Source of the DNA: Sulfuricaulis sp.
GTDB lineage: Bacteria; Pseudomonadota; Gammaproteobacteria; Acidiferrobacterales; Sulfurifustaceae
Direction: 5' to 3'
Length of the DNA: 63,252 nt
Assembly (NCBI GenBank): GCA_024654125.1
Contig: JANLIC010000007.1
Span: forward strand, 1 to 63,252
In this document: positions 32,552 through 52,106 of the stretch, piece after piece
Position numbering within the stretch: the stretch's first letter is position 1
Layout: every line of letters begins with the position of its first letter
Notes under the pieces: model-generated
Seen by the model: the letters and a program-made list of their open reading frames with translations, nothing else
Database searches by the model: none
What the model was told of the DNA's origin: nothing
Translations under genes and position numbers: made by a program

Positions 32552-32585
32552 TTGACAGCTCCTTAAGTAAACCTTGGAAAACGTC

Positions 32586-34091: not shown

Positions 34092-34108
34092 GATTCTTTC
34101 TCTCGTGA

Positions 34109-35011: not shown

Positions 35012-35023
35012 GTCAATAGAGCG

Positions 35024-36310
35024 CTAAATGGAGTTGACATGATTCTTCGGCCGTTCGAAGGTAGGCTCTTCGACCGTGATGCGAACAATTTCCTGGCCCT
35101 GTTTGTTGTAACCGATAACGGTATCATTGAATATCTCCTGAACCGCCTTCTTCCCGGATGGCAGTGTGTTTTCGATCTCGGCAACCTTTTTGCCTTTGTC
35201 GATCTTGAACTTGAAAATGACCTTCTGCGTGGCGCGAAACAGCTGAAGCACCGCCAGCAGTTCCCGGTCGGGATTGGAGTATTGTTCAATGGCCTTCTCG
35301 ACACCGGGGCCGAACATCTGCACCAGGTAGCCGCGTGGCACCCAGCGCGGCGGGATGTAATAGCCATTCGGCTCGGTGCCGAACTGGGGATAGAGCGGTA
35401 GCGCGATTTCGCGCTCGCGCACAAGATAATTTATCGGATTGTCCGGATCCTTCGCCCATTTTCCGTCCGCGGTCTTCTTCACCAGCCCCTGAAGGCGGAT
35501 CTTGCCCACGCAGGCGGTCATGCAACGCGTTTCCAACGGGGATTTGTCTTCGCTCAGGGTCGGGTCCTTGCCTTCGATGCGCGGATAGCAGGCGATGCAC
35601 TTTTCGCTGATCCGGGTGGTCGAGTTGTACATGGGCTTTTTGTACGGACAGGCCTCCACGCACTTGCGGTATCCCCGGCAGCGCTCCTGGTCGATCAGAA
35701 CGATGCCGTCTTCGGGCCGTTTATAGATGGCGTTACGAGGACAGGCAGCCAGACACGCGGGGTAGGTGCAATGGTTGCAAAGGCGTTGCAGATAGAAGAA
35801 CCACACCCGGTGCTCGGGCAACTCGGCGGAATAGCCCCACTGATCCTTTCCCCGGATCTTTCCCGTGGCGGTCTCTTCGTGGATGTTGGGGCTTGTCCAT
35901 TCCTCTTCGGCGGGGATATAGCCCAGGGCGCGCATGGACCCATCGGCGGAAAGATGGTTTTGGGCGGCCTCGAAAATGGTTTTACCCTTGAATTCGCCGT
36001 AGGGATTTTCCGGGGACTTCTCTTTAGTTCGCCACACCTGCCCATCGGGATCTTCCTTTGCGAGCATCGCCAAAAGCTTGGCGTCCCAATTGTGTGGATA
36101 GCCGCCATAGGGCTTGCTCTCCACGTTGTTCCACCACATGTATTCCTGTCCCTTGGCGAAGGTCCAGGTGGACTTGCAGGCCATGGTACAAGTCTGACAG
36201 GCGATGCAGCGGTTGATGTTGAACACAAAGGCGAACTGCCATTGTGGATGCGCTTCCTCGTGCGGATAACTCATCCCTCGCCCGAGCTGCCAGTTATAAA
36301 CGTTAGCCAT
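35024..36310 (-). CDS. nxrB: Nitrite oxidoreductase / nitrate reductase beta (Fe-S) subunit, Nitrospira/anammox type
   Basis: MANVYNWQLGR.MSYP...WQFAFVFNINRCIACQTCTMACKSTWT, CNHCTYPACLAACP, CRGYRKCVEACPY, CIACYPR, LPLYPQFGTEPNGYYIPPRW. Confidence 0.92.
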   Translation of the reverse strand: MANVYNWQLGRGMSYPHEEAHPQWQFAFVFNINRCIACQTCTMACKSTWTFAKGQEYMWWNNVESKPYGGYPHNWDAKLLAMLAKEDPDGQVWRTKEKSPENPYGEFKGKTIFEAAQNHLSADGSMRALGYIPAEEEWTSPNIHEETATGKIRGKDQWGYSAELPEHRVWFFYLQRLCNHCTYPACLAACPRNAIYKRPEDGIVLIDQERCRGYRKCVEACPYKKPMYNSTTRISEKCIACYPRIEGKDPTLSEDKSPLETRCMTACVGKIRLQGLVKKTADGKWAKDPDNPINYLVREREIALPLYPQFGTEPNGYYIPPRWVPRGYLVQMFGPGVEKAIEQYSNPDRELLAVLQLFRATQKVIFKFKIDKGKKVAEIENTLPSGKKAVQEIFNDTVIGYNKQGQEIVRITVEEPTFERPKNHVNSI

Positions 36311-36331
36311 AGTCACGATCTCTCTGCAAGG

Positions 36332-36679
36332 TTATTTCGGTTTTCTTTCGACGAAATGCAATGTTTGCGTCGGTTGGGCCTCGCTGACCTTGAAATGAAA
36401 GACGCCACACCGCTGTAAGGTCTGTTCGATGCATTCGTGGACGGCTTCGCGGCCTAATTGTTTTGCCAAGCCATGCGACGCCAGAAAAAACGGGTTCTCG
36501 AACAGCCGCGCAATCTGATTTGCATTCCAACCCATGCGGGCGAACTCCTCGATCAGGCACTGCAGCATCACGCGTTGATCCCCCGCCACCGACTCGGCCT
36601 GCATTTGCATCGGATCATCCGGCTCGGAGGGCTTTGGCGATCCGGTACCGACCGCCCCGGAGTCTTTTGAATAAGTCAT
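36332..36679 (-). CDS. Hypothetical protein between nxrA and nxrB
   Basis: 115-aa ORF tightly packed in the operon; PDDPM...IEEFARMGW...LFENPFF...H. Confidence 0.7.
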   Translation of the reverse strand: MTYSKDSGAVGTGSPKPSEPDDPMQMQAESVAGDQRVMLQCLIEEFARMGWNANQIARLFENPFFLASHGLAKQLGREAVHECIEQTLQRCGVFHFKVSEAQPTQTLHFVERKPK

Positions 36680-36685
36680 CGCCGG

Positions 36686-39600
36686 TTACGCCTCTTTAAT
36701 GAAACCGCCGGCGAGATACCTGCGCATCGCTTCGGATTCGGTTCCCGGTGAGTGTCCCGTGGTCGCGGGTTGCCAAACACCCTTGCCATTAAGCCCACCG
36801 TCTTCCGCTTTGGTGATACGGACAAGTGTCTCTTTGGGAACCGTGTTGACGCCGTGGTTGTCGACCGCGAAACCGAATACGAATCTCATCGCCCCGGTAT
36901 CCTTGTGGAACAGGGTATCGGTCTGGTGCATGGGCATAAGCCAGCTTCGGGTAATGCTTTGGTGTGAGCCATAACGGTAATTGGACTGATAACCGGTATC
37001 CTTGGCCAGGGCGCGGCCGTCCGGCCGGCTCTCGTGAGCCTTGACGGTGCGTTCGGTGCCAATCCACCCGGTGTGTTTCATAATCGTCATGGCGTAGGGC
37101 AGGGATGGGTTAAACTTGAGCCTCACCAAACAACGGAACGCCCGGGAGCGAAAGTTCTCCTTGCTCATCTTCCAGCCGACATAGGGACGATCGGCGGGAT
37201 TGGCATCGACATAGACGTAATCGCCCTCTTTGAAACCACTGTCCTTGGCCGCTTGGGGGTTCATCTGAATCTGCCGGTCACTGACTCCGGGGGCGCGTTT
37301 GTCCTTGCGGTAGGGATCGCTGAAACTGGTACTCCAGATCCAGTTCCAGTCCACGGTGGACCAGGAGGAGTGGGTGGTGTGCCGGCTCTTGGGCGTCGAG
37401 CAGAAGAAGCGGTATCCCTGCGCCCACAGCGGATTAACGGTTTTCTTGACCTTACTCCACGGCATCTTGACGTTGCGCACGGTCCGCAGATCCGCATCCA
37501 TCGCATCCAGGGGAATTCCATAGTTATTGGGACGGATGTAGGGACTGCTCGAGACAATGACATTGGGAAGATAAGGCGTTGCCTCAGTCCCTTCCCGGTG
37601 GACCATCAGGTTCTCTCCGTACTCGATGGCCTCAGGCAGATCGCAATAGGCGGACATCCGGCCGTGATCCGTATAGAACGGTATACTGTCATTAAGCTGT
37701 TCGTAAAACGGCACCCGCGGGTAGGTACGGAACAACATCAGGGCCGCCCCCGGTTCCCCGCCGTACTCACCTTTGAGTATCTTATCGAGCTGGTAGGGAC
37801 CGTCTTTGCCACGGGTCGTGGTGCAGTTGTCCAGCACCCGCTGAATATAAACCCCGGCCTTCTTCTCGGTGATGTATTTCCAATAGTCGGCAAAGCGGCG
37901 GTCACCGGTGGTCTTGGTCAGGGCGCGGCCCACGCCGGCGAAGATTTCGGCATCGTCCTTGGAGTCGTGGACCGGCTTGATGCCGTTGCCGCCCCAGACC
38001 TGGAGGAAGGGGTTGGAACAGGAGCCGCCGATCTCCAGGTCCTGGAACTCGACCCAGGAGTTGGCCGGCAGCACGATATCCGAGTACTCCGCCGAGGCGG
38101 TCCATTCCACCTGCTGATCGACGATCATATCGATCTTGGGAAAGACGTTGACGATCAGGTGGTAGACCCACTTGGCCTGATTGATCAGGTTGGCATTGTT
38201 GTACCACATGAGCTTGGTGGGGGTCGGCATATGGGTTTTGCCGGTGAAGACCTTCCGACCCTTGGGGGTGTCAACGATTAGCGGCGTTTCACCGTGACCC
38301 CAGAAGGCCACGTCTTCACCATAGGTGTAGTTGTGCAGGTGCTCGTGATGATCCATGCGAACCTTTTCATCGAGCACCGGTTGGAAGGGGTTCTCGTGGC
38401 TGTAAGAACCGACGCCGGGTCCGCTCCAGGATGAGGCCTGAAACAGCGCACCTTTATAGTTTCCGGCCCAGGTAAAGACGCCGGCGCCATGCTTACCGAA
38501 GTTCCCGGTTAACATTAACGGCAGATGGCAGGCCCGATTGTGCAGGGTGCCATGGAAATAATGGTTGGTGCCCTCGCCGTGGTGGAGGGATACCGGATGG
38601 CCGGCCTTGCTGGTCTCCCAGATGTCCCGCGCCAGGCGCTCCACAAGTTTGGGATCGGCGCCGCTGATCTCTTCCACGGTTTTAAGGTCGTAGTCCTTGA
38701 GATGACGCTTATACATCTCATAGGCCGGCATCACCTCAACATCTTTGCCGTCCACCGTCCGCACCTTGAAGACACCGGTGAGGGCGGCATTCATATTCGC
38801 CTTGTCACCCACTTCCTCACGGCTGATGGCGACCACTTGGCCCGCCTTGGCGTCCCAGATGGTGAAATCACCAATCCGTTCCCGCTGCTTATCCGTCAGG
38901 CCCTGGATCTTATAAGAGGGGCCGTCGCGCAGGTCCTTGGCTTTGTATCCCCGAATGACGTCTTCGGGCCGTAAACGGCGCAGCGTATCGGTACGTACCA
39001 ACAGCGGGAAGTCGGTGAACTGCTTCACGAATTTCTTATCGACCCAGTCGTTGTCCATCAGGATCTTGGTGATCGCCAGTAGCACCGAGGTGTCAGAGAG
39101 TCCGGGCCGGGTCCCGATCCAATAATTGGCCTTGGCCGAGGGCGCGTTATAGTCGGGGGTGATAGTGACAATCTTGCCGCCGCGCTCCATGATCTCGTTG
39201 AGCCAGTGTGACTCCGGCATCTTGTTCTCGACGAGGTTCTTGCCCACCTGGATGGTGAGCTTGGAAAAGCGCAGGTCGGACATATCGATGTCGGAGGTCT
39301 GCAAGCCGTGAACGAACGGCTGACCCGGGGCCTGGTCGCCGCGCCAGGTATATTCCGTCCACTCGCGCGAGCCCTGGGCCTGTTCAGGCGTCGCACCACG
39401 GGCGTGATGATCGACCAGGGCCATCATGTTGGCAAAACGAAACAGGCCGAATTTACCGATTACCCCATGCAGCGGAAGCGACGACCCGATCTTCATGGTG
39501 CGCGTGCCCGCGCCGTGCCAATGTTCCAGCATTTCCTTTTCGTAGCCGTCCTTCATAAGCCGGCGCTTGCCTTCGTCGCCGCTGTAGGTTCGGCCCACGG

Positions 39601-40234
39601 CCAGCAGGCCCCGGGCGCAGTAATCCGACACCTCTTCCCAGGAAACGCGTACGAAGGTGTCATTGCCACGATCGTCAAACTTGTATTTTGACCGCAATTC
39701 GGGATTGTCGGAGAGCGAGGGAAAATCGGCATCGGCCCAGGCCTTCCATCCTTTTCGAATCACCGGCCCGCTAAGACGATACGGGCCGTAGACCCGGCGC
39801 TGAAACGTATAGCCCTTCAGGCACCCGCGGGGATTCCAGGATTGGGTGGTCTTATTACCATAGAGATCGCCGCAGCGATCGTGATCGTAATTTTGCTCGC
39901 TGCGGATCATGACCCCGTTGCGGACAAATGCCCGCATGCGGCACATATGGGTATCGTTCGGCGCGCAGATCCAGGTGAAACTGTTATCGTAACGGTATTG
40001 ATCCAGGTAGACCTTTTCCCATCCGCGGTTTGGATAGTGTTTTAAGGGATTGTCGATACTGGGAACCGCCACCAGTGACGCCAGCACATCTTTGCAGCTG
40101 AGGGCCGTCGCCACGCCCGCGGTCCCCGCCGTCAGGAGTTGCAGGAATCGACGCCGGCTGAGATCTAATTGGTTATTCGCGGCGTCCCCCTTGCCAGAAG
40201 CGGGGACCTCTTTCGGCTGATTTTCGTCTGACAT
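36686..40234 (-). CDS. nxrA: Nitrite oxidoreductase / periplasmic nitrate reductase alpha subunit (Mo-bisPGD, DMSO reductase type II), Nitrospira/Nitrospina/anammox type
   Basis: Tat signal SRRRFL; FS0 motif CAPNDTHMC...NPRGCLKG; RVYGPYRL; YTWRGDQ with the Mo-ligand Asp; TPKSRHTTHS; NTVPKETLVRITKAE. Confidence 0.92.
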   Translation of the reverse strand: MSDENQPKEVPASGKGDAANNQLDLSRRRFLQLLTAGTAGVATALSCKDVLASLVAVPSIDNPLKHYPNRGWEKVYLDQYRYDNSFTWICAPNDTHMCRMRAFVRNGVMIRSEQNYDHDRCGDLYGNKTTQSWNPRGCLKGYTFQRRVYGPYRLSGPVIRKGWKAWADADFPSLSDNPELRSKYKFDDRGNDTFVRVSWEEVSDYCARGLLAVGRTYSGDEGKRRLMKDGYEKEMLEHWHGAGTRTMKIGSSLPLHGVIGKFGLFRFANMMALVDHHARGATPEQAQGSREWTEYTWRGDQAPGQPFVHGLQTSDIDMSDLRFSKLTIQVGKNLVENKMPESHWLNEIMERGGKIVTITPDYNAPSAKANYWIGTRPGLSDTSVLLAITKILMDNDWVDKKFVKQFTDFPLLVRTDTLRRLRPEDVIRGYKAKDLRDGPSYKIQGLTDKQRERIGDFTIWDAKAGQVVAISREEVGDKANMNAALTGVFKVRTVDGKDVEVMPAYEMYKRHLKDYDLKTVEEISGADPKLVERLARDIWETSKAGHPVSLHHGEGTNHYFHGTLHNRACHLPLMLTGNFGKHGAGVFTWAGNYKGALFQASSWSGPGVGSYSHENPFQPVLDEKVRMDHHEHLHNYTYGEDVAFWGHGETPLIVDTPKGRKVFTGKTHMPTPTKLMWYNNANLINQAKWVYHLIVNVFPKIDMIVDQQVEWTASAEYSDIVLPANSWVEFQDLEIGGSCSNPFLQVWGGNGIKPVHDSKDDAEIFAGVGRALTKTTGDRRFADYWKYITEKKAGVYIQRVLDNCTTTRGKDGPYQLDKILKGEYGGEPGAALMLFRTYPRVPFYEQLNDSIPFYTDHGRMSAYCDLPEAIEYGENLMVHREGTEATPYLPNVIVSSSPYIRPNNYGIPLDAMDADLRTVRNVKMPWSKVKKTVNPLWAQGYRFFCSTPKSRHTTHSSWSTVDWNWIWSTSFSDPYRKDKRAPGVSDRQIQMNPQAAKDSGFKEGDYVYVDANPADRPYVGWKMSKENFRSRAFRCLVRLKFNPSLPYAMTIMKHTGWIGTERTVKAHESRPDGRALAKDTGYQSNYRYGSHQSITRSWLMPMHQTDTLFHKDTGAMRFVFGFAVDNHGVNTVPKETLVRITKAEDGGLNGKGVWQPATTGHSPGTESEAMRRYLAGGFIKEA

Positions 40235-40338: not shown

Positions 40339-40362
40339 GTGCCGGTGACAATCCAGTAACAC
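40339..40362 (-). promoter_or_regulatory. Candidate operator box 2, upstream of nxrA
   Basis: Minus strand GTGTTACTGGATTGTCACCGGCAC, 22/24 identical to box 1, followed by TGGTAGTTT (extended -10-like). Confidence 0.7.
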
Positions 40363-40471
40363 TCAGCATTACCGTTCCCTCCGTTGAAACTTTTCTCACC
40401 CTTGCGCCTTTAATAATGACGGCGGGCTGGGTTCGACATGCCCGCCGATAGTCGCCGGGCATCGCCGCCAG

Positions 40472-40490
40472 GTGTTACTGAATTGTCACC
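40472..40490 (+). promoter_or_regulatory. Candidate operator box 3, upstream of the Usp/radical-SAM operon
   Basis: GTGTTACTGAATTGTCACC followed at the same spacing by TGGTAGT. Confidence 0.7.
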
Positions 40491-40542: not shown

Positions 40543-40770
40543 TTGGAATCGTTCGTTGCGCGGGTCTGGCTGGAGTACGGGCAAAATGGGGAACCGATAT
40601 GGCGCGGGCATGTCCGGCATGTCCAGAGCAGCCGCGAGGCCTACTTTCAAGACCTGCGGGAAATGAGCAAATTTCTGGAGCAAGTGAGTGACGTGCCCGG
40701 GCCTTTGACCGAGCGGACGACGGAGGCGCGAGGGGGCGGCGATTCCCCATCTCAACGGCGCCGGAGGTAG
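40543..40770 (+). CDS. Small hypothetical protein (75 aa)
   Basis: SFVARVWLE...WRGHVRHVQS...YFQDLREMSKFL looks protein-like; TTG start with GGAG upstream. Confidence 0.6.
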   Translation: MESFVARVWLEYGQNGEPIWRGHVRHVQSSREAYFQDLREMSKFLEQVSDVPGPLTERTTEARGGGDSPSQRRRR

Positions 40771-40976: not shown

Positions 40977-41072
40977 ATGCGTCTTACCCCGTTCGACTAT
41001 GTCGTGCTCGCCGGTGGTTTGATCAACTTGATTGTGATGTGCCTGATAATTATTCATTGGATCTGGCGCTGA
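40977..41072 (+). CDS. 31-aa single-TM peptide, not in the ORF track
   Basis: MRLTPFDYVVLAGGLINLIVMCLIIIHWIWR; ends 13 nt before the Usp gene. Confidence 0.5.
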   Translation: MRLTPFDYVVLAGGLINLIVMCLIIIHWIWR

Positions 41073-41085: not shown

Positions 41086-43395
41086 ATGAATGCCAAAACA
41101 TTTACAAAAACAGAAAAACAAGAATACCAGGAGGCCCGGCTACCCAGCTATCAATCGATATTGCTGGCCACCGATTCGTCGGATCATGCCAATCGCGGTC
41201 TCAGCGATGCGATCGTGCTCGCCAAGCAGTTTGGCGCCAACATTACGGCCACCCATGTGTATGCGGCCAAGATGCATGATTTACGTTTCCGGCATATGGA
41301 AGGCGGCCTGCCGGAGAAATTCCGTCAGGAGCATGAACTGGAACGACAACGGGACGTGCATGACGATCTTATTACGCGCGGCCTATCCATTATATCCGAC
41401 TCTTACCTGGACCGGGTCGCCCACGCCTGTAACGAATCCGCCGTCCCATTGACGCGTTGTGTGCTGGAAGGAAAAAATTATCGAGCCTTGGTGACGGAAA
41501 CCAACAGCAGTCACTACGACCTGCTCATCATGGGCGCGCTCGGACTCGGTGCGGTGGAAGGCAGTCGCCTCGGTACGGTTTGTCAACGCGTTGCGCGACG
41601 GACAGACATTGATACCTTGGTCATAAAAGAGCCAAGCCGTTCTATCGCCGAAGGACCCGTCGTGGTGGCGGTAGACGGCTCGCCCAAGGCCTACGGCGGG
41701 CTGTTAACGGCCTTGTCCCTGGCGCAACAGCGGAAGCTACCGGTAACGGTCGTCGCGGCATTCGATCCGTACTTTCATTATGTCGCGTTTAACCGTATCG
41801 CCGGCGTGCTCTCCGAAGAGGCGGGCAAGGTGTTCCGATTCAAGGAGCAAGAAAAGCTGCACGAGGAGATCATCGATTCCGGCCTGGCCAAGATCTACCA
41901 AGGCCACCTGGATGTCGCGGTCACCGTCGCCCGGGAACACGGCATGGACGTCGAGCCGGTGCTGCTGGCCGGCAAGCCCCATGACGCCATTGCCAAATAC
42001 CTGCGCCAGGTCAATCCCGCCCTGCTGGTGATCGGCAAAACCGGCATCCACGCCGACCCCGGCCTGGACATCGGCGGTAATGCCGAGAACCTGCTCTACG
42101 ACGCGGACTGCGCCGTACTGCTCAGCCAACGTGAATATCGGCCGCGCGTCGACGTGGTGGCCGATGTGACCACCTCCTGGACCCATGAAGCGGAACACGC
42201 CATGCAAAAGGTGCCAGCGTTCGTGCGCAATATGGCGCGCATGGCCATACTACGTTACGCCCAGGAGCGCGGGCACACCGTGATCACCGAAAAAATCGTC
42301 GAACAAGCTACCGCTGAGCTGTGTCCAGGTCATGCCAAGCAGGCCATGGCCGAGATCGTGGCTAAAAAAATGGGGTCGGAGTCGACTAACCCGGAACCAC
42401 CTATCAACTCTGATTCCACCGAATCGGTTATCGACTCCGACCCCATTTTTTCTGATATTTCCAAACCGGAGGTGGGTGCGCCGATGGTATGGAGCGACGC
42501 GGCGATGGCATTGTTGGAAACCGTGGCGAATCACGCCATACGCCAGAATCTGCGTCAACGCGCCGAGAAGAAAGCGCGGACCGATGGCAGCAGCTGTGTA
42601 CGACCGGAACATATCGACCATTTTCTGCCGAAAGCTGACGGCACCAAGGCAACCCAAGAACCGCTAATGGATCCGGGCAGCGGCCCTGTCAACCCTGAGG
42701 ATGTCGGTAGCCCGAAACCGAATACGCAAAGCGCGTTTCATTGGCACGCCGCTGCCCTCGCGCGCGTGATGCGAATCCCCAAGGGGTTCATGCGCGACGC
42801 CTCGTGCGTCCACATTGAACAGCACGCCCGTGAGCACGGACTCACGGAAATCACCTTGGATGTCGCGGAACAAGGTCTGGCCGAAGCCCGAAAGGTCATG
42901 CAAGCCACGATGCGCGCCAATCACGAATTGCTTTCCAGCAACACGGCGGTGTCCGGGCAGAGCAGGTGCCCGTTTTCCAAGCGCGCCGAAGGCACTGCAC
43001 AAGGCCCGGTCATGCCCTGGTCGGAGGGGGCAGAGACACAGTTAACGAACGTGCCATTGGGCTTTTGCCGCGACATGACGCGCAAGGCGGCCGAAACCAT
43101 CGCCGCGCAAAGCGGCAAGACCGAAATTGACGAGCCGTTCGTGCAGAAGCTGATCAAGACCTTTGAGGCGGGCTCAAGCGCAGCGCACGAAACGATGCCT
43201 TGGGACGACGCCGCGCGCGGGCGTATCGCCAAGGCGCCGGACATGATCCGCGGCATGCTGATCAAAGAGATCGAGGCATGGACCAGACGCCACAACATGA
43301 AACACGTCAATGAAGATGCGGTCCGGGCCGTGAAGCAGCTGTGGCAACAGAAAGGCCAGTTCCACCTCGACCCTGACGACCCACGTTCGCAGTAA
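41086..43395 (+). CDS. Tandem universal stress protein domains plus five PCP_red (BchB C-terminal-like) repeats
   Basis: ILLATDSS...LLIMGALG..GS.LG; VVAVDGS...LVIGKTG...IGGNAE; five W-x-x-x-A...(VP/IP/AP).F/M.R-type repeats. Confidence 0.8.
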   Translation: MNAKTFTKTEKQEYQEARLPSYQSILLATDSSDHANRGLSDAIVLAKQFGANITATHVYAAKMHDLRFRHMEGGLPEKFRQEHELERQRDVHDDLITRGLSIISDSYLDRVAHACNESAVPLTRCVLEGKNYRALVTETNSSHYDLLIMGALGLGAVEGSRLGTVCQRVARRTDIDTLVIKEPSRSIAEGPVVVAVDGSPKAYGGLLTALSLAQQRKLPVTVVAAFDPYFHYVAFNRIAGVLSEEAGKVFRFKEQEKLHEEIIDSGLAKIYQGHLDVAVTVAREHGMDVEPVLLAGKPHDAIAKYLRQVNPALLVIGKTGIHADPGLDIGGNAENLLYDADCAVLLSQREYRPRVDVVADVTTSWTHEAEHAMQKVPAFVRNMARMAILRYAQERGHTVITEKIVEQATAELCPGHAKQAMAEIVAKKMGSESTNPEPPINSDSTESVIDSDPIFSDISKPEVGAPMVWSDAAMALLETVANHAIRQNLRQRAEKKARTDGSSCVRPEHIDHFLPKADGTKATQEPLMDPGSGPVNPEDVGSPKPNTQSAFHWHAAALARVMRIPKGFMRDASCVHIEQHAREHGLTEITLDVAEQGLAEARKVMQATMRANHELLSSNTAVSGQSRCPFSKRAEGTAQGPVMPWSEGAETQLTNVPLGFCRDMTRKAAETIAAQSGKTEIDEPFVQKLIKTFEAGSSAAHETMPWDDAARGRIAKAPDMIRGMLIKEIEAWTRRHNMKHVNEDAVRAVKQLWQQKGQFHLDPDDPRSQ

Positions 43396-43400
43396 GACGA

Positions 43401-44723
43401 ATGGAAGGATTTAACGCACATGCAGCGCCAACGATAACCGGGAAAGGCGCTGTCCATGATCTTTACCTGCTGGCCATAAACCTGACCCGCCGTTGCAACC
43501 TGCGTTGTCCGCACTGTTATCTGGACGCAGGCACGCTGCGCGACGGATCACAGGACGAACTGCGCACCACCGAGGTTCAGGAATTACTGAATGACGTCGC
43601 CAGCCGCAGCAACGAAACCATGGTGGTGCTGACCGGCGGGGAGCCTTTGCTGCGGATGGACCTCGAGGACATCATCGCCTTTGGTGCGGAACGCGGGCTG
43701 GCGATGGTGGTGGGTACCAATGGCACCGCGCTCACGGACCGCCGGGTCCGATCGCTCAAACAGGCGGGCGCCCTGGGGGTCGGTATCAGTCTGGATTCGC
43801 TCGATGAAACCTACCACGATCACTTCCGCGGCCTGGCGGGAAGCTGGCAAAAAACCCTGGCGGGGATCGAGGCCTGCCGTCGTCACGCGCTGTCTTTCCA
43901 AATCCATTTTTCCATTACCGACGCCAACGCCCACGAACTGCCGGCCATGATCGACTTCGCCCGCGCCTGCGGCGCTCGCGTATTGAATATTTTTTTCTTG
44001 GTGTGCACCGGCCGCGGGGAGTCGATGTCCGATATCTCGCCGCTCCGCTGTGAACAGGTGCTGCGCGCATTGGTCGCCGCGCAATCGCAACACACCGATA
44101 TAATCATCCGCGCCCGCTGCGCGCCCCATTTCAAACGCATCGCCCATCAACACGACCCGGACTCGCGCCTGAATCGCATCAGCGGCAGGGACGGCGATGG
44201 CTGTATCGCCGGCATCCATTACTGCCGCATAACCCCGGAGGGTGGCGTCACTGCCTGCCCTTACATCCCGGACGAAGCAGGCAATGTTCGTCAACAACGC
44301 CTCCTGGACATCTGGGATCACGGATCCGAATTCCAACGCCTGCGCGTGCCGGTGCTGCGCGGCAAGTGTGGCGACTGCGAATACCATCTGTTGTGCGGCG
44401 GCTGCCGCGCGCGGCCGCGGGCCTTGGACGGCGATCTCATGGGCGCCGACCCGTTGTGCGCCTACGTGCCTAAGGGAGGCCGCGCGATCGTTCCGCTGTC
44501 CGATATCGAAGGCCCATGCATACACTGGGACAGCGAGGCCAGCCTACGGCTAGCGCGCGTTCCGGCGTTCCTGCGCCGGCTAATCAAAAAACGCGCAGAG
44601 GCCTATGTCGCCGCGCTTGGCGAGGCCTTGGTAACCGCGGACCATCTGGCCACCTTGTCGGCACGGCGTTTTGGCGGCAACGGCCCGAAGCGACCCGGCT
44701 TTTTTAAGGAGCCACAAAAATGA
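43401..44723 (+). CDS. Radical SAM/SPASM protein (AhbD/NirJ-like) with C-terminal PCP_red domain
   Basis: CNLRCPHC, LTGGEPL, CIAG..YCRITPEGGVTACPY, CGDCEYHLLCGGCRAR...DPLC, WDSEASLRLARVPAFLR. Confidence 0.85.
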   Translation: MEGFNAHAAPTITGKGAVHDLYLLAINLTRRCNLRCPHCYLDAGTLRDGSQDELRTTEVQELLNDVASRSNETMVVLTGGEPLLRMDLEDIIAFGAERGLAMVVGTNGTALTDRRVRSLKQAGALGVGISLDSLDETYHDHFRGLAGSWQKTLAGIEACRRHALSFQIHFSITDANAHELPAMIDFARACGARVLNIFFLVCTGRGESMSDISPLRCEQVLRALVAAQSQHTDIIIRARCAPHFKRIAHQHDPDSRLNRISGRDGDGCIAGIHYCRITPEGGVTACPYIPDEAGNVRQQRLLDIWDHGSEFQRLRVPVLRGKCGDCEYHLLCGGCRARPRALDGDLMGADPLCAYVPKGGRAIVPLSDIEGPCIHWDSEASLRLARVPAFLRRLIKKRAEAYVAALGEALVTADHLATLSARRFGGNGPKRPGFFKEPQK

Positions 44724-46138
44724 CCGGCATCGACGTCCTGGTGGTAGGCGGTGGGATCTCGGGTCTGTCCAGCGCTTGGTGGCTGGCCCGCGCCGGGTTT
44801 TCGGTGGAGGTATGGGAGGCCGGAGATCGCCCAGGCGGGAAAATCTTAAGCCAACGCCAAGACGGCTATCTTACGGAACGTGCGGCGGCGATGGTCATGA
44901 ACTTCCGCCCCGAGGTCGTTGAGTTGGTGCGCGAAGCCGGTCTGGAACCGGCCAAAACCAAACGTTCGCCGGCTGCCGCGGCACGTCGCTACTTGTTGCA
45001 TCAGGGACGACTGGAAAGCCTGCCCATGCGTCTTGGGGCGTTCATGACCTCCCCGCTGTGGAGCCTGCGCGGCAAGCTGCGCATGCTGGCAGAACCCTTT
45101 ATTCCAGCGAGCGGCGATGAAAATGAAAGCGTGAGTCAATTCATCACCCGACGTCTGGGCCGGGAAGTACTGGAAAAAGCCATGGAACCGTTCGTGGCCG
45201 GGACCCTGGCGGCTGACCCCGACCGGGCCTGCGCCGCGTCTACGCTTCCCCGGCTTACTGCGCTGGAACGACGTTACGGCAGCATCACCGCCGGCATTGT
45301 GGCGAACCGCCTGCTGCACCGGCGCCAGGGCTGTGTCACCGATACGTTTTCATTCCAGGGCGGCATGAATACCCTAATAAATAATCTGGCCCGAACCCAT
45401 GGGGTCCAGTTGTACACCCGCCACACCGTCCAGGAGCTGGTCCGCGAGCAAACCGGCTGGCGGGTGACGGCCATGACACCGGCGGGTGAACGGTCCCTGC
45501 AGGTGCCCCGGGTCGTGCTTGCGACCCCCGCCCCCGCGGCGGCCTCGTTGCTTGCAGGCTTGGATGCGGAGTTGGCTGACCTGCTGCGCGGGATCCGCTA
45601 CGCGCCGGTTACCGTAGTGCATCTGGGGCTGGATCGGGCCAGCGTGCAGCATCCGTTGGACGGTACCGGGTTTCTGGTCCCCAGGCAGGAAGGCCGGCAT
45701 CTGACGGGCAACCTGTGGATGAGCACCCTGTTCCCGAACCGGGCGCCCGCGGGCAAGGTTCTGTTGTGCGCCTACCTCGGGGGCGCGCGCTCACCCGAGG
45801 TACGGGACTGGGACGATAATCATATCGTGGCCGAGACATTACGCGCGCTGCGCAAATATCTGGGGCTCAAGGCCGAACCGGAGATGGTCCGCATCGATCG
45901 ACACCCGCAGGCCTTGCCTCTCTATCACGGCGCCTACCAAGCGCGCATGCAGGCGATCGGAGCCCGCCTAAGCAAATTCTCGGGGCTTTACTTGGAGGCC
46001 AACTACCAAGGCGGGGTGTCGGTGCGCGACCGCATTGCCCGTGGCCGTACACTGGCAAAGCAGATCCAGGCAGCGGAGCGCCACGCGCCTGGCCGCCTTG
46101 CACCTCTCGCTCTTCCGGCTCTGGGGCCAGACGGCTGA
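44720..46138 (+). CDS. hemY: Protoporphyrinogen/coproporphyrinogen oxidase, HemY type
   Basis: VVGGGISGL FAD motif, ESVSQFITRRLG, PLDGTGFLVP, STLFPNRAP, ALPLY..G. Confidence 0.85.
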   Translation: MTGIDVLVVGGGISGLSSAWWLARAGFSVEVWEAGDRPGGKILSQRQDGYLTERAAAMVMNFRPEVVELVREAGLEPAKTKRSPAAAARRYLLHQGRLESLPMRLGAFMTSPLWSLRGKLRMLAEPFIPASGDENESVSQFITRRLGREVLEKAMEPFVAGTLAADPDRACAASTLPRLTALERRYGSITAGIVANRLLHRRQGCVTDTFSFQGGMNTLINNLARTHGVQLYTRHTVQELVREQTGWRVTAMTPAGERSLQVPRVVLATPAPAAASLLAGLDAELADLLRGIRYAPVTVVHLGLDRASVQHPLDGTGFLVPRQEGRHLTGNLWMSTLFPNRAPAGKVLLCAYLGGARSPEVRDWDDNHIVAETLRALRKYLGLKAEPEMVRIDRHPQALPLYHGAYQARMQAIGARLSKFSGLYLEANYQGGVSVRDRIARGRTLAKQIQAAERHAPGRLAPLALPALGPDG

Positions 46139-46312
46139 GGCCCGGCCCGTGCCATGACTACCCGGGAACGGGCCAGTGATAACAAAATCACGGAGGGGTT
46201 ACACTCCTGATGTATCGTTGTGACGGTATTCTCTTCTTTGACGTTGATTACCAGGGGAGTTTTGCATGGGTAACGCGGCGGGGCGTCAAACGACATTCCC
46301 GAGGGTAGGCGC

Positions 46313-47123
46313 ATGGATGCGCACTCTCGCCAGCGTACGGAGCGCGCGCGGCACGGCGCCGCGTACGAATCCCAAGCAATCTGTTTTTTCTGGTATGTAC
46401 CGGCCGCGGCGTTACCCAGACGGATCTTTCCGCGGCGGCTTACGAGGAGACGCTGTGCGACATAGACCGGTTGCAACGGGAACGACCGTCGTTAAGGATT
46501 CGCGCGCGCTGCGCGCCCTACATGCATGCGGCGCGTGCGGGGGTTGCACGTGGGTGAACAGGGCGAGGGTTATGCCGAGTGGCCCAGCGCCTGCCTGGCT
46601 GGGAGAAAATATTTTCGTATTACACCGCAGGGGACCGTTACCCCTTGCCCCTACCTGCCTGGAACCGTTGGCGATTTGCGTACCCAGACGTTGCGGGGAG
46701 TCTGGGAGCAAAACGTTGAACTACAGCGTTTGCGCACGGAATATCCCGGCGGCAAGTGCGGGGCGTGCGATTATCGCCTGAGCTGCGGCGGCTGCCGCGC
46801 GCGCGCTTATGCCGCCTGCGGCGACATCATGGCCGAGGATCCGAAGTGTCCTTATATACCCGCCGCAGACGCCGGACCTGAAACCCGGATCGAGCCGGCG
46901 GCTCCGCCGCTCACGTGGACACCCGAGGCGCGTGCGCGGCTGACGCGCATCCCGGCATTTCTGCGCGGGGCGGATCCGGGCGCGACTCGAAGAGCGCGCG
47001 CGGGCGCAGGGGTTGAGCGAAATCGGCACTGAGTTTATGGCCGCCCACCGACCCGGATTCCTGACCGAAACGGTACACCATACCGGCGCGGTCATCGCGG
47101 GCGAGCCGATGCAGGACAAATGA
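46313..47123 (+). pseudogene. Second radical SAM/SPASM-PCP_red paralogue, with an internal deletion and two frameshifts
   Basis: N-terminus jumps to NLFFLVCTGRG...IRARCAPYM (CxxxCxxC region lost); catg duplication near 46521-46528; CLAG..YFRITPQG, CGACDYRLSCGGCRAR; extra G near 46966-46969. Confidence 0.8.
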
Positions 47124-47265
47124 AAGGATATCGGTAATCTCACGGTCTTATAATGTGTATCCAGATCGAGGCAGAGTCCGCGTTCCCTCGGCTGGGTGTG
47201 GAGCGTGCGCGGTGCGACTGTGTGTGAATCCCAAGTGTGTTTTTCCATAGCATAGGAGGAGTGAA

Positions 47266-47541
47266 ATGAAAGATAGCAATGCGTTGATAAGAGCTGCACT
47301 GATAGGTCTCGTGGCAATGGGTGTCGGTGCGTTTACCATGACTGCTTCGGCTGGCAAAGCCGGCATGGAGAAGTGCGCCGGCATCGTCAAGGCCGGCAAG
47401 AACGACTGCGGCACCAGCGCCCATGCCTGCGCCGGCCAGTCCACGAAGAACGGCGACGCCCAGGAATGGGTCTACGTCCCGGTCGGCACCTGCGACAAGA
47501 TCGTCGGCGCGAAAGTCGTGGCGGCGGCGCCGAAGAAGTAA
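47266..47541 (+). CDS. DUF2282 / BufA1-type bufferin precursor peptide
   Basis: Signal peptide plus [15 protein letters not shown]...HACAGQS...[15 protein letters not shown] (four Cys); strong RBS aggagg. Confidence 0.88.
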
Positions 47542-47544
47542 GCC

Positions 47545-48045
47545 ATGCCGCCGGGCCGGCGATGTTCGCCGGTGCCGGCGGCTCGTTGCGGCCATCCCAC
47601 TATGCGTGTAACCGGTCTGGGCTTCGGTATTCTGGTCGTGGCGACGCTTAATCTTCTCGGCGCCGCCGCGGCCGGCGAGGCCGGGTCGCCGGGCTGGCGC
47701 GAATGGTCGCCGCAAGTGTTCGAGCAGGCCCGGCGCGAATCGCGATTGGTGCTGCTCGACGTGGTCGCCGAGTGGTGCCAGCTCTGCAAGAAAATGGATC
47801 TCACCGCCTATCGCGATCCGAAGGTGCTCGGGCTGATCGGACAACGTTATATCGCGGTTCGCGCCGACATCGATAAGGAACCGGAGATCAGGCAACGTTA
47901 CGGCGACTACGGCGTGCCGGCGGTGGTCATCCTCGACGGCGGAGGCAACGAGATCATCAGGCGCCGGGGCTACCTCACGCCGGAATGGCTGTACTGGATG
48001 CTGGTGGCGGTGGCTGACAATCCCGACCCTGCGGCCCACCGCTAG
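47545..48045 (+). CDS. Thioredoxin-like (DUF255-type) exported protein (start may be 47602)
   Basis: W..W....FEQARRESRLVLLDVVAEWCQLCKKMD...YGVPAVVIL. Confidence 0.78.
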   Translation: MPPGRRCSPVPAARCGHPTMRVTGLGFGILVVATLNLLGAAAAGEAGSPGWREWSPQVFEQARRESRLVLLDVVAEWCQLCKKMDLTAYRDPKVLGLIGQRYIAVRADIDKEPEIRQRYGDYGVPAVVILDGGGNEIIRRRGYLTPEWLYWMLVAVADNPDPAAHR

Positions 48046-48077
48046 TGTCGTGCCTCGCAAATAACTTTCTTAAGTTC

Positions 48078-48308
48078 GTAGCCTGGATGGAGCGCAGCGA
48101 CAAAATCGTTGGGTGAGGCGGGGTCTTCGCGAACATAATGTATGTTCGCGCCGCCGAACGGGTGCGACGGGTTTGGTTGCACCCCGGGCAGCAACGTTGG
48201 ACAGCCGAAGGCTGACCCGCAGGGCGGAGTCCAGGGACGGACTCCGCCAATCCAGGTAATCGCGAAGAAACCCCCGGATTGCGGCATGGCGTGCCTCCAT
48301 CGGGCTAC
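48078..48308. repeat. GTAG-type REP-like composite palindrome
   Basis: gtagcctggatggag ... ctccatcgggctac inverted ends enclosing several hairpins. Confidence 0.55.
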
Positions 48309-48377
48309 AAGAGGAGTAATTTTCGATTCGTGAATTATGTAATTTATTTCTGGGACACGACACTAGGATAAAGAACG

Positions 48378-48917
48378 ATGGACCGGCGTACGTTTCTCAT
48401 CCACTTCGGGGGCCTCGCGGCGGCACCAGCACTGTCGTCGCTGCTCACCGGCTGTGCCTCGCCGGTGCGCGAGGCACTTGCCCCGCCGCCCGGGTTTGAC
48501 TGGCGAACGCTCGCGGCGGTGCAGGCGCACTTGCTGCCCTCCGAGTCCAGCGCGCCGGGCGCCCGCGAGATTCACGCCGAGGCGTATCTGCGCGGGGTGC
48601 TCGCCGACCCGAAACTCGCCCCCGCCGACCGCGCATTTCTGATCGATGGTGTGGAGTCGATCGGCAAACTCGCGCGCGGCATGACCGGCAAACATTTCGT
48701 CGAGTTATCGCACGATGAACGCGAAGCCGTTTTGCGCGGCTTCGGGGAGATGCCCGAGGGCGAGCGCTGGCTCGAAGAGATGCTCGGCTACCTGATGGAG
48801 GCGCTGCTCGGCGATCCGGTCTACGGTGGGAATCCGGACGGTGTCGGCTGGCAGTGGCTGGCGCACAACCCGGGTTTCCCGCGACCGCCGGCGGACAAGC
48901 GCTACTTTCTATTATGA
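48378..48917 (+). CDS. Gluconate 2-dehydrogenase subunit 3 family protein (Tat)
   Basis: MDRRTFL, PGARE, DPVYGGNPDGVGWQWL. Confidence 0.85.
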   Translation: MDRRTFLIHFGGLAAAPALSSLLTGCASPVREALAPPPGFDWRTLAAVQAHLLPSESSAPGAREIHAEAYLRGVLADPKLAPADRAFLIDGVESIGKLARGMTGKHFVELSHDEREAVLRGFGEMPEGERWLEEMLGYLMEALLGDPVYGGNPDGVGWQWLAHNPGFPRPPADKRYFLL

Positions 48918-50596
48918 GAGACGAGTTCGATATCTGCGTGATCGGCGGCGGCGCGGGTGGCGGTGTGGCGGCGTTCGCGCTGGCGCAGGCCGGTTACGAC
49001 GTTGTCATCCTCGAAAAAGGGCCGTGGCTCACCGAGAAGGATTTCTACAAGGACGAGATCGCCTGCTGCCGTCGGCGCACGTACGTCCCCGACCTCAAGG
49101 ACGAGCCGCATGTGATCGAGACGCGGGAGGAAGACGATCAGCCCTGGCGGGCGCGGCCGACGCCGGGGTCCGGCTGGGATTTCTGGAACGGCAACTGCGT
49201 CGGCGGCTCGTCGAATTTCATGAGCGGCTTTTTTCACCGATTGAAGCCGGTGGATTTCCAGCTGCGTTCGAGCTTCGGTCCGATCGAGGGCGCCAACGTC
49301 GTCGACTGGCCGATTTCTTATGATGATCTCGAACCTTATTATGCAAAGGTCGAGCGCGAAGTGGGCGTCTCGGGCCGGATCGTGCCACACCCGCAGCTCG
49401 AGCCGCGCAGCACGCCGGACTTTCCTTATCCGCCGACGCGCGAGCACCCGATCGCCGGGCTGATCGATGCGTCTTGCAAGAAGCTCGGTTACCACTCGAT
49501 CCCCACCGCGCGCGCGATCCTGTCGCAGCCGGCCATGGGTCGCGGGAGTTGCAGCTACAACGGTTACTGCGGCAGTTACGGCTGCGCCACCGGCGCCAAG
49601 GGCGGCGCGCGTGCCGCGCTCATCGATCGCGCGGTGGCCGGCGGCCGCTGCGAGGTGCGCGCCCATAGTATGGTGGCAAGGCTCGTGAGCGACCGGACCG
49701 GCAAGGTCAGCGCGGCGGAGTACTTCGACAAAAACGGCGTGCGCCGGCGGGTGACCGCGCGCGTCTACGTGGTCGCCTGCCAGGCGATCGAAACCGCGCG
49801 GCTGTTGTTGCGTTCGACCGGCCCGCGTCATCCCCAGGGGCTCGCCAACGGCAGCGGCCAGGTCGGCAGGAACCTGTTGTTCGCCGCGGGTGGCGCCGGC
49901 TCCGGGCGATTGTCTTACAGGAAATTCGGCGAGTCGCTGCATGAGTTCGGTACTTTCGTCAATCGCGCGCTGCTGGATTGGTACGTGATCGACGACCCCG
50001 AATTCGGCCCACGTCAGAAAGGCGGAACGATAGACTTTGTGCATGCGCATCCCGCCCCGATCGCGCGCGCCACGAGCCAGCTGCGCCGCGGCGGCCGGCT
50101 CGTCTGGGGCGCGGAGCTCAAGCGCAACCTCGAGGCGCATTTCCGCGAGGGGCGCGACGTCAAGATCGAGGCCTTCTGCGACTGGCTGCCGCACGACGAC
50201 TGTTACGTCACCCTCGATCCGCGCGTGAAAGACAAGTGGGGACTGCCGGTGGCGCGTGTGCGCGTGGATTTCCACCCGCACAATCTCCAGGTCGGCTGGT
50301 ACCTCGCCGAGAAGGGCGCGCGGGTACTGAAAGAGTTGGGCGCCGAGGACGTGGTGTCCTTCGCCGTCGGTTCGCCGCCGACCAATCTCCAGGCCGGCGG
50401 TTGCCGTTTCGGGAAGGATCCGAAGACCTCGGTGCTGGATCCCGACTGCCGCGCGCACGAGGCGGAGAATCTGTTCGTCACCGACGGCAGCTTCATGCCC
50501 ACGGCGGGCAGCGCGCCCTATACCTTCACGATCTACGCCAACGCCTTCCGCGTGGCCGACCGCATCAAGGCGCAGCTCGGCGGGAGCCGCGCATGA
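48914..50596 (+). CDS. GMC-family flavoprotein oxidoreductase
   Basis: VIGGGAGGG, VGGSS, DWPISYDDLEPYY, C...G.C...GC cluster, GCRFG.DPKTSVLD, NLFVTDGSFMPT. Confidence 0.88.
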   Translation: MRDEFDICVIGGGAGGGVAAFALAQAGYDVVILEKGPWLTEKDFYKDEIACCRRRTYVPDLKDEPHVIETREEDDQPWRARPTPGSGWDFWNGNCVGGSSNFMSGFFHRLKPVDFQLRSSFGPIEGANVVDWPISYDDLEPYYAKVEREVGVSGRIVPHPQLEPRSTPDFPYPPTREHPIAGLIDASCKKLGYHSIPTARAILSQPAMGRGSCSYNGYCGSYGCATGAKGGARAALIDRAVAGGRCEVRAHSMVARLVSDRTGKVSAAEYFDKNGVRRRVTARVYVVACQAIETARLLLRSTGPRHPQGLANGSGQVGRNLLFAAGGAGSGRLSYRKFGESLHEFGTFVNRALLDWYVIDDPEFGPRQKGGTIDFVHAHPAPIARATSQLRRGGRLVWGAELKRNLEAHFREGRDVKIEAFCDWLPHDDCYVTLDPRVKDKWGLPVARVRVDFHPHNLQVGWYLAEKGARVLKELGAEDVVSFAVGSPPTNLQAGGCRFGKDPKTSVLDPDCRAHEAENLFVTDGSFMPTAGSAPYTFTIYANAFRVADRIKAQLGGSRA

Positions 50597-51591
50597 CGGC
50601 GACGCTCGTCGATTCCTTCGGCCGGCGCATCGAGTACCTGCGCGTATCGGTCACCGACCGCTGCAACTATCGCTGCTTCTACTGCATGCCCGCGACGGGC
50701 GTAGCGTACGGGCGGCACGAGGAGTTCCTGCGCCACGAGGAAATGGCGCGACTGGTGCGGCTGTTCGCCGAGCTCGGCGTGCACAAGGTCAGACTCACCG
50801 GTGGCGAACCGTTGGTGCGCCGCGGTATCGTGGACCTCGCCGGCCTGATCGGCCGCATCCCCGGCATCACCGACCTGTCGTTGTCCACGAACGGCCATCT
50901 GCTGGAGCGTCACGCCGCAGCGCTGAAGGCCGCCGGCGTCGCGCGCGTGAACATCTCGCTCGATTCGCTCGACCCCGATACGTTCGCGCGGATCACCCGC
51001 GGCGGCGATCTCGGGCACGCATGGCGCGGCATCGAGGCGGCGCTGACGGTGGGGATGACGCCGGTCAAGCTCAACATGGTGGTGCTCAAGGGGATCAACG
51101 ACCGCGAAATCGAGTCGATGCTGGATTTCGCGCTCGCGCGCGGCGCGCACCTGCGCTACATAGAAACCATGCCGGTAGGCGAGGCCGGCGCTCAAGGAAT
51201 GGAACATTATTATTCGGCCGACGCCATCCTCGCACGCGTGCGCAAGAAAGCCAGCGCGGAGTTGATCCCAGTGAAGGGCGCGCCGGGCGCCGGGCCGGCG
51301 CGCTGTTACCGGATCGGCGCCGGGCCCGCGACCGTCGGGATCATCTCCGCGATCTCGCGCCACTTCTGCGAGGGCTGCAATCGCGTGCGCCTGACGGCTA
51401 AGGGGGAGTTGGTGCTTTGCCTGGGCCAGGACCAGCGCGTGTCGCTGGCCGCGGCGCTACGGACCGGCGCGTCGGACCTCGATCTCAAGGATCTTATCGC
51501 GGGCGCGATTGCGCAAAAACCGAAACGGCATCGCTTTGCCGGACAGGGTGCATGTCACCCCATTCATAAGATGTCGGTGCTGGGCGGGTAG
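50593..51591 (+). CDS. moaA: GTP 3',8-cyclase MoaA
   Basis: [36 protein letters not shown]...CL, C-terminal MSVLGG. Confidence 0.95.
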
Positions 51592-51601
51592 GAGGCGAAT
51601 T

Positions 51602-51717
51602 GTGGTCGAGGTCGGATATCCACGCCGGCTCGATGCGCCCCGCGAGCGCCTTGAGTTGACGCAGATAATCCCGGTTGAGCGGGTCGTGCGATCCGATGGA
51701 GAGGATACGCCGTGCAT
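51602..51717 (-). pseudogene. Fragment of a DUF692 / MNIO (BufB-type) gene
   Basis: Minus strand reads MHGVS-(1-nt deletion)[30 protein letters not shown]. Confidence 0.78.
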
Positions 51718-51864
51718 CGCGTCGTCAATCAACACCTCCGTCCGCGACAGACCTTTATCGGTGTGCTGCCGGGCGGTGTGTCGCAGGTAATCGTTGAGCT
51801 CGGGGTTGCCGTAGTCGAAGCCTTCCCGGTGGTGCCAGCGGCTTAGGGGCTCAATCCAGAGCAT
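51718..51864 (-). pseudogene. Truncated GNAT-family toxin (TacT/AtaT type)
   Basis: IEPL...HHREGFDYGNPELNDYLRHTARQH..KGLSRT.V, then fused to the DUF692 fragment. Confidence 0.72.
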
Positions 51865-52050
51865 TCAGGGCCGAGCGCCGGTAGGCCGCGACCGCTTTCT
51901 TCAACCGCTTATTGGGCGCGGGCGGATTTTCCAAAGCCTTGAAAAACGCCTCCGCGTCGCGGCAGCTCAGGCGAACAAATCGCTCCCGCTCCAGCACCGC
52001 GTGTGCCTCCTTGAGCGCCGCCTGTACCACAAACTGGTCAACGTCGCGCC
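51851..52050 (-). pseudogene. N-terminally truncated DUF1778 antitoxin
   Basis: DQFVVQAALKEAHAVLERERFVRLS.RDAEAFFKALENPPAPNKRLKKA; overlaps the GNAT start. Confidence 0.75.
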
Positions 52051-52106
52051 CGGTCGTTTCCGTCGATGTTACGACGCGGCACCTTGGAAAAGCTTCTGCT
52101 GTCAGC

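Follow-up and report, generated by a model that had tools for sequence, protein, structure and literature searches.

A Usp–radical SAM–HemY gene module that tracks OR-N oxidases and probably serves their maturation

Introduction

Dedicated radical SAM enzymes are known from the NirJ/heme d1 system of cytochrome cd1 nitrite reductase, and in passages of PMC10114771 and PMC13564367 the coproporphyrin-dependent (CPD) heme route is described as ending, under anaerobic conditions, with an AhbD-like enzyme (sections of PMC5095920 and PMC8529089 give further background on heme pathways). A relative of these enzymes is encoded on a 63,252-nucleotide stretch of DNA from Sulfuricaulis sp. (contig JANLIC010000007.1 of assembly GCA_024654125.1), hereafter the window. 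Three genes on its forward strand encode a tandem Usp protein of 769 amino acids (41086–43395), a radical SAM enzyme (rSAM1, 43401–44723) and a HemY-family FAD porphyrinogen oxidase (44720–46138). They are followed by the remains of a second radical SAM gene (rSAM2, 46154–47123). A first-pass annotation, made from the sequence alone, had read this operon as a possible heme-synthesis or heme-tailoring complex serving a cytochrome bd-like protein or NXR. Here, Usp, rSAM1 and HemY, together with a 31-amino-acid membrane peptide with a single helix encoded upstream of Usp (40977–41072, +), are described as a working unit that tracks the bd-like OR-N oxidase and not NXR.

The AhbD signature given in the accessible part of PMC10452713 is a CX3CX2C motif plus an eight-cysteine SPASM arrangement, CX20-33CX17CX36-37CX2CX5CX2CX17-35C, and excerpts of PMC6013774 and PMC10114771 also give these SPASM spacings. 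With AhbD (TIGR04545), NirJ2 (TIGR04055) and TIGR04053 the module enzyme shares the radical SAM motif, the eight-cysteine spacing and a C-A-P-H segment. It differs from all three in scoring below their cut-offs, in forming its own clade and in having R or K instead of T before the first cysteine of auxiliary cluster I (AuxI). Unlike AhbD, it has a C-terminal PCP_red domain, a fixed Usp partner and linkage to OR-N, and it coexists with housekeeping AhbD-type genes. The logic of the heme d1 system appears similar, with a dedicated radical SAM set and a special heme, predicted in the present case, for one respiratory enzyme. Unlike NirJ, the module enzyme scores 160 bits against the NirJ hidden Markov model (HMM; cut-off 515), and its locus lacks siroheme-branch genes.

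The other components also have described relatives. The tandem Usp proteins Rv2623 and TTHA0350 have the same fold and domain 1 ATP motif; the module Usp is only 17–24% identical to them and differs in its conserved His-paired inserts, its PCP_red and (in Nitrospira) rubredoxin-like tails, and in being a single-copy protein linked to an enzyme. PCP_red matches the sequence family of the C-terminal domain in DPOR subunits BchB/ChlB (stand-alone structures 2KRU and 2L09) but, unlike there, forms arrays on non-photosynthetic proteins. The module HemY belongs to the FAD oxidase family of PgoX (2IVD) and CgoX (3I6D) and is set apart from both by its redundancy with host HemJ and by AAAM in place of GPxS.

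OR-N oxidases were defined in bioRxiv 2021.01.16.426971, according to which they retain the heme d-site His ligand. Those of nitrite oxidisers and manganese lithotrophs are called uncharacterised or putative in portions of PMC10839748, PMC9040806 and bioRxiv 2020.07.02.185504, and in the accessible literature OR-N are the proposed O2-respiring enzymes of Nitrospira, Nitrospina and Manganitrophus. The same portion of bioRxiv 2020.07.02.185504 reports four UspA proteins of N. marina as increased at low O2, not tied to the module Usp family. The word 'radical' is absent from the main text of bioRxiv 2021.01.16.426971, whose supplements describe operon context and might name these genes. Searches that reached few subscription papers found no published account of a Usp–rSAM–HemY module, which is apparently an undescribed, widespread accessory kit of OR-N oxidases.

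Results and discussion

Co-occurrence with the bd-like oxidase

The predicted client is a cytochrome bd-like subunit (24732–26630, +) with a PF01654 score of 72 bits, about 14 hydrophobic segments, no CxxCH motif and 39–49% identity to the N. defluvii copies; its classification as OR-N1/N2-like is based on the described traits, not on the subfamily HMMs of the authors who defined OR-N. Its operon also encodes a di-heme cytochrome c and a multi-heme c/EB_dh protein (26627–29850, +), which are possible co-clients. Compared loci and genomes are designated by L- and G-numbers, respectively, with G000 the window's own genome (87.7% complete). A Usp relative is encoded in 524 GTDB stretches, and locus counts refer to the best 80 of these (24 Pseudomonadota, 56 Nitrospirota).

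Usp and the bd-like gene co-occurred very tightly in two phyla. Among 121 Nitrospirota genomes, 41 contained both, two only Usp, two only the bd-like gene and 76 neither; both bd-only genomes hold a divergent Usp–rSAM pair. Of 400 Gammaproteobacteria scored (one more was unscored), 13 had both (G000 included), one had Usp only and three the bd-like gene only. In the Acidiferrobacterales, the order of the window, Usp was present in 5 of 103 genomes, the bd-like gene in 7 and both in 4. A bd-like gene was found in 31 of 35 module genomes (30 of 34 once G035 and G115, which are one assembly, are merged). Fisher p-values were not taken as proof, because neither kin nor islands are independent samples. 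The radical SAM gene was present in 70 of the 80 loci, and in 66 of the 68 with at least 1.5 kb of downstream sequence.

The link is not mere proximity, since the genes are co-retained hundreds of kilobases apart in N. defluvii (Usp at 0.52 Mb, bd-like genes at 0.87 and 3.26 Mb) and in G213 (0.95 and 0.43 Mb, respectively). In G247 and G164, the bd-like operon ends with Usp and rSAM. In G213 this operon stands amid NosD/NosL genes, and in G243 its downstream neighbours are COX2/COX1 genes (L137, L141).

The bd-like link proposed in the first-pass annotation was thus borne out, and the one to NXR was not. An NxrA-like gene was found in 1 of 16 gammaproteobacterial module or bd-like genomes other than G000, and NXR was rejected as client on this count. 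Within the order the figure was 2 of 5; among the Pseudomonadota loci, NxrA was found in 3 of 24 and the bd-like gene in 9 of 24. G076, of the same genus as the window, has the island without NXR.

On the strength of these sequence comparisons, we consider Usp, rSAM and HemY a dedicated OR-N maturation kit, with a probability of roughly 85%. The near one-to-one partner set names genes that would need co-expression for an active OR-N, and the proteobacterial islands should be the easiest versions to express because they bundle regulator, oxidase and kit.

The radical SAM enzyme

Profile searches and phylogeny placed rSAM1 near, and outside, the known heme enzymes. Its best families were NirJ2 (TIGR04055; 304.5 bits, cut-off 500), AhbD (TIGR04545; 290.6 bits, cut-off 500) and TIGR04053 (247.7 bits, cut-off 395); the TIGR04545 cut-off is strict, being passed by 1 of 82 AhbD-related representatives, and is a weak test alone. 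The cluster cysteines are C32/36/39 and C240, 268, 286, 323, 326, 332, 335 and 353, all 11 invariant in 23 sequences. Besides CX3CX2C they make up the full eight-cysteine SPASM set, CX27CX17CX36CX2CX5CX2CX17C. A PCP_red domain (44526–44648, +) completes the protein.

A 69-row quick tree was rooted at midpoint, with L128, L129, L131 and 18 near-redundant rows removed; its labels derive from HMM scores and its rows include no biochemically tested AhbD. The 16 module rSAM rows formed one group (SH-aLRT 99) and 43 AhbD-like and TIGR04053 rows a separate one (SH-aLRT 99). The nearest neighbours of the module group (support 90) were two NirJ2-leaning rows, themselves below cut-off. Support for the module group was weak in a 45-row tree (69/37), because of long outgroups. 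All 120 of the close homologues of the module enzyme compared have R immediately before the first cysteine of AuxI, where 114 of 120 homologues of an AhbD-type protein linked to hemE have T. Judged by these sequence measures, the module enzyme is not a member of AhbD. Its separate clade and its coexistence with housekeeping AhbD- and ChdC-like genes suggest that rSAM1 is probably not an ordinary heme b synthase.

HemY and the heme routes of the hosts

HemY was identified with TIGR00562 (264 bits, cut-off 97.85). It was present in 14 of 15 gammaproteobacterial genomes with a bd-like gene versus 1 of 20 without (the first listed non-matches). Of the loci, 13 of the 24 from Pseudomonadota and none of the 56 from Nitrospirota contained it. 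In G119, HemY adjoins the bd-like gene and not Usp. Module HemYs of alpha-, zeta- and gammaproteobacterial lineages are as little as 30–40% identical, which suggests repeated recruitment. HemJ is kept in 15 of 18 gammaproteobacterial genomes tested. As HemY is retained in such HemJ-bearing hosts, we read it as doing a step that HemJ cannot.

The hosts have complete heme b routes of their own. G000 encodes HemF, HemN and HemJ and gave no match to the ChdC-type family PF06778, so that a CPD pathway, with CgoX, CpfC and ChdC or AhbD and with HemF/HemN dispensable, is not what this genome displays. No ferrochelatase was found in the 87.7% complete assembly; its relatives carry hemH, and the gap was rejected as meaningful. 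In G124 an AhbD scoring 496 bits is encoded next to hemB, and in G213 an AhbD-type gene adjoins hemE, each alongside the module enzyme; G234 also has a housekeeping AhbD-type gene. In N. defluvii, hemE-hemH-hemY with a CpfC-like chelatase were found and, elsewhere, a ChdC-like protein; neither HemF nor an above-cut-off HemN was found there. These genomes keep both kinds, so each host has a heme b route besides the module enzyme. Elsewhere in the Sulfuricaulis genome (G000:C283, L126), a true NirJ (643 bits) accompanies AhbA/B-like siroheme decarboxylase genes, corresponding to heme d1 synthesis.

The first-pass annotation had named, as one option, ordinary heme made by a coproporphyrin-type route; this has become doubtful in view of the complete host routes, the position of rSAM1 outside AhbD and a HemY that is nearer to PgoX. 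A tetrapyrrole-type role in general was supported. Among the outcomes it had listed, a modified heme for the bd-like protein fits these comparisons best.

The Usp protein and the PCP_red domains

Pfam profiles and alignment identified two Usp domains (PF00582) and five PCP_red stretches (42178–42309, 42490–42618, 42742–42873, 43018–43146 and 43201–43335, all +) in the Usp protein. PCP_red (PF08369) whole-protein scores were 143.4 bits for Usp and 38.6 bits for rSAM1 (cut-off 32.5). A genome-wide scan gave eight matches, all at the Usp locus, with single copies scoring 19–58 bits and four of the eight above the per-match cut-off. They represent seven domains, the seventh being split by a frameshift, which agrees with the seven copies originally counted.

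The Usp core was modelled as a tandem Usp fold (pTM 0.86), with Rv2623 (Z 27.9) and TTHA0350 (Z 26.9) among its matches; the fold search returned Usp-type folds only, the helical inserts being searched as part of the core and not alone. We take G-x2-G-x9-G-(S/T) to be the ATP-binding motif of Usp proteins. It is present in domain 1 (G150/G153/G163-T) and degenerate in domain 2 (G317/G320/G330-G). Each domain has a helical insert, the two being homologous to each other (E 2e-6) and carrying pseudo-symmetric His pairs spaced by 28 residues, H64/H92 and H231/H259. H64/F68/M71/H92, H231/F235/H259 and several Arg are invariant down to about 30% identity, a pattern that would suit heme binding. Nitrospirota Usp proteins (L036:9998–14093, L023, L026) contain a rubredoxin-like domain between PCP_red copies, and in the same loci a CopD-like gene lies 3' of rSAM.

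PCP_red counts were taken over 92 loci. They ranged from 0 to 5 per Usp, with seven complete Usp proteins lacking the domain, and were 1 or 3, never 0, per complete rSAM. In L018, L019, L020 and L026 the module is adjoined by separate proteins that consist of one to four PCP_red copies standing alone. Because complete Usp proteins without PCP_red exist, the array on Usp is accessory and not essential, and the notion of a Usp scaffold that needs it was abandoned. The count distribution fits an exchangeable docking module. No tested function of PCP_red was found in the portions of PMC13474568 and PMC12022308 available.

Proposed mechanism and alternative explanations

The kit would work like heme d1-type tailoring systems, probably making a heme that differs from ordinary heme b and loading this into the oxidase. 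In the proposed route, HemY would oxidise a porphyrinogen outside the HemJ route, with coproporphyrinogen III or a related monovinyl compound the likeliest substrate; Nitrospirota would employ their housekeeping HemY, and Proteobacteria the one carried with the kit. Host ferrochelatase would insert iron, and the pseudo-symmetric His pairs of the tandem Usp would hold the Fe-porphyrin, ATP driving binding or release. The three-cluster radical SAM enzyme would then alter a side chain in the manner of AhbD or NirJ, and the product would be passed to the membrane OR-N subunit, perhaps through the 31-amino-acid peptide. PCP_red domains would act as interchangeable docking modules, at least one always on rSAM and 0–5 on Usp. 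That the kit follows this exact route to a heme other than heme b has, in our estimate, somewhat less than an even chance. A fuller version, in which OR-N uses an undescribed heme from a novel tetrapyrrole branch, made by a HemY step, an ATP-driven Usp heme carrier or even chelatase, a new radical SAM side-chain reaction and PCP_red docking, is possible but doubtful. The kit predicts a non-standard heme in OR-N and, if the proposal is true, would give the first concrete role to this Usp subfamily and to PCP_red outside photosynthesis.

Several observations weigh against the dedicated kit or its route. The module HemY scores higher with Myxococcus PgoX (2IVD, 227 bits) than with Bacillus CgoX (3I6D, 182 bits), the N. 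defluvii housekeeping HemY having the reverse preference (231 versus 305 bits). Because the module HemY looks PgoX-like, the coproporphyrin route is unproven, and according to the part seen of PMC13564367 no characterised Gram-negative protoporphyrinogen oxidase oxidises coproporphyrinogen. Proteobacterial hosts tested have a single ferrochelatase each, so iron insertion would require acceptance of a non-standard porphyrin. Part of the co-occurrence is co-transfer, since the proteobacterial genes lay within 15 kb on one island in 11 of 12 genomes other than G000 and kin are not independent. Exceptions also exist. G492 (97% complete) has a bd-like gene without Usp or HemY, and G028 (95%) and G036 (80%) have one without rSAM. 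Usp occurs without a bd-like match in G025 (88%), G108, G112, G118, G134, G150 and G647, and HemY was not found in G110. Among all these exceptions, G492 and G028 are the well-assembled genomes. Finally, one of the cytochromes encoded next to the bd-like subunit in its operon could be the client, and not that subunit itself.

The PgoX-like character of HemY, which keeps the RRY arginine of the Myxococcus enzyme although its GPxS segment reads AAAM, would agree with a kit that starts from finished heme b, with HemY a plain PgoX boosting supply and rSAM tailoring a vinyl or propionate group, for example to a heme d-like chlorin. Heme b is the sole product that every host can make, and the heme d-site His ligand kept in OR-N (part of bioRxiv 2021.01.16.426971) is in line with this. 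Such a scheme leaves the retention of HemY in nearly every HemJ host unexplained, and no further heme gene appeared regularly on the island, one ferrochelatase adjoining it in L025. We regard it as unlikely.

Its full AhbD SPASM motif could make rSAM1 an AhbD-type enzyme that forms ordinary heme b from coproheme through a CPD bypass and channels it to respiratory cytochromes, the reading of the first-pass annotation; the anaerobic CPD step in the passages of PMC10114771 and PMC13564367 mentioned above would also agree with it. This is quite unlikely for an enzyme that falls below the three family cut-offs and outside the AhbD clade, and would be redundant with the AhbD/ChdC-like or HemF/HemN/HemJ enzymes of the same genomes.

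The chance that rSAM and Usp are merely a HemW-like chaperone or insertase, carrying unchanged heme b to OR-N, appears slim; the His-rich Usp insert and ATP motif would suit that role, but the 11 invariant cluster cysteines would not, and HemY would be superfluous. Protein or metal chemistry was given the same low standing. Here rSAM would cross-link a protein (OR-N or the 31-amino-acid peptide), or the His pairs would load Cu or Fe, heme chemistry being incidental. SPASM enzymes are often peptide maturases, the best PDB match of rSAM is PqqE, a small conserved peptide heads the operon, the Nitrospirota rSAM gene is followed by the CopD-like gene, and the part seen of bioRxiv 2020.07.02.185504 proposes Cu sites in one bd-like paralogue. 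Against this, rSAM1 scores 290–305 bits with heme-enzyme HMMs and 111–140 bits with peptide-maturase HMMs, HemY travels with it, and matches to the peptide were confined to proteobacterial loci. An explanation in which the genes act for NXR, or simply ride along on a respiratory island, is very improbable, since the box shared with nxrA and the common layout of G419 and L001 are set against the rarity of NxrA-like genes (1 of 16 and 2 of 5 genomes) and a bd-like link that survives physical separation.

Operon organisation and a shared promoter box

The dense packing remarked on earlier was confirmed, with 5 nt between Usp and rSAM1, a 4-nt overlap of rSAM1 and HemY, and 15 nt between HemY and rSAM2. 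The operon begins upstream of Usp with a conserved 75-amino-acid open reading frame (ORF; 40543–40770, +) without a Pfam match and the membrane peptide. Homologues of the ORF lie near a BTAD regulator in L010, L025 and L107. The peptide has homologues in about 14 other proteobacterial loci, upstream of Usp or, in L008 and L009, of rSAM.

A direct-repeat box, TGTTAC-N5-TGTCAC with an 11-bp period, heads the operon (40472–40490, +). As initially noticed, the box is shared with nxrA (40344–40362, −), the two copies facing outwards from 40472(+) and 40362(−), and a further copy faces the bd-like operon (24205–24223, +). These are the only three copies of the 19-bp box in the genome; a looser pattern gave eight genome-wide matches. 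The regions upstream of the bd-like gene (24103–24223) and on the Usp side (40361–40490) are 70% alike. Usp is preceded by the same core repeat in L001, L010, L025, L107 and L109, and all three sites are present in G419, where most genes of the same island are 61–91% identical and the layout is shared with L001.

BTAD/SARP regulators bind direct repeats of 11-bp period. A PAS-Trans_reg_C-BTAD regulator is encoded at 22845–24089 (+), and a BTAD regulator lies beside the module in L010, L025, L107 and G419; the box is a likely site of this type of regulator. FNR and sigma-54 patterns were not found in the six upstream regions searched. The window also encodes a sensor kinase and response regulator pair.

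The second radical SAM gene

The radical SAM paralogue predicted twice was found once in working form. Frame analysis and orthologue alignment showed that the second module-type radical SAM–PCP_red gene is a pseudogene and takes no part here. No CxxxCxxC motif was found in the three forward frames of 46100–47300, the 5' catalytic half being replaced (about 46190–46376). The remnant aligns to an intact orthologue in G064 (same genus; 5'-cut by its contig) only from residue 142 of that orthologue on, across three frames with 72–80% identity per piece, the frameshifts being four extra bases near 46521 and one near 46968. Among groundwater contigs from four runs in two studies, one shares 45400–46376 and then jumps to 47254, two part from the window's sequence at 46189, and in two the four extra bases are missing. 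Assembly error was ruled out by these contigs, which show strain-level decay. The gene was also ruled out as a core part, being absent in G419 and G076. In G064 (L148:5144–9122) the orthologue is followed by a Crp/Fnr-like regulator and a MoeA-like gene (named from translations), a context unlike that of the window.

Neighbouring genes

The NXR-like molybdoenzyme cluster (31817–40234, −), divergent from the Usp operon and with a Tat signal, encodes in this gammaproteobacterium A, a 115-amino-acid ORF, B, D, a cytochrome c/EB_dh protein and a carboxypeptidase-regulatory-like protein. NxrA is 91% identical to the L001 and G419 copies. The cluster separates the kinase/regulator pair from the Usp operon, whereas these two adjoin each other in G076, G030 and L010. 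A short ORF at the left edge of the island (22450–22764, −) presumably resembles the start of an IS transposase.

Beyond the pseudogene, 47266–51591 holds genes for a DUF2282 peptide, a thioredoxin-like protein, a gluconate-2-dehydrogenase-like GMC pair and MoaA, and 51457–52129 a TacA-like antitoxin with an adjoining short ORF. The Tat-signal metallophosphoesterase/5'-nucleotidase-like protein at 52546–54273 (−), with a third-position GC content (GC3) of 0.9, we take to be probably SoxB, which suggests a sulfur oxidiser. ChrB-ChrA chromate resistance, SOD-like protein and MFS transporter genes of high GC3 occupy 54353–59343. In L009, L020 and L022 (also L002 and L019), genes for a Rieske_3/molybdopterin enzyme, presumably AioA/IdrA-like, a HEAT-repeat protein and a carboxypeptidase-regulatory-like protein lie near the module, and L022 has two di-heme peroxidase-like genes there.

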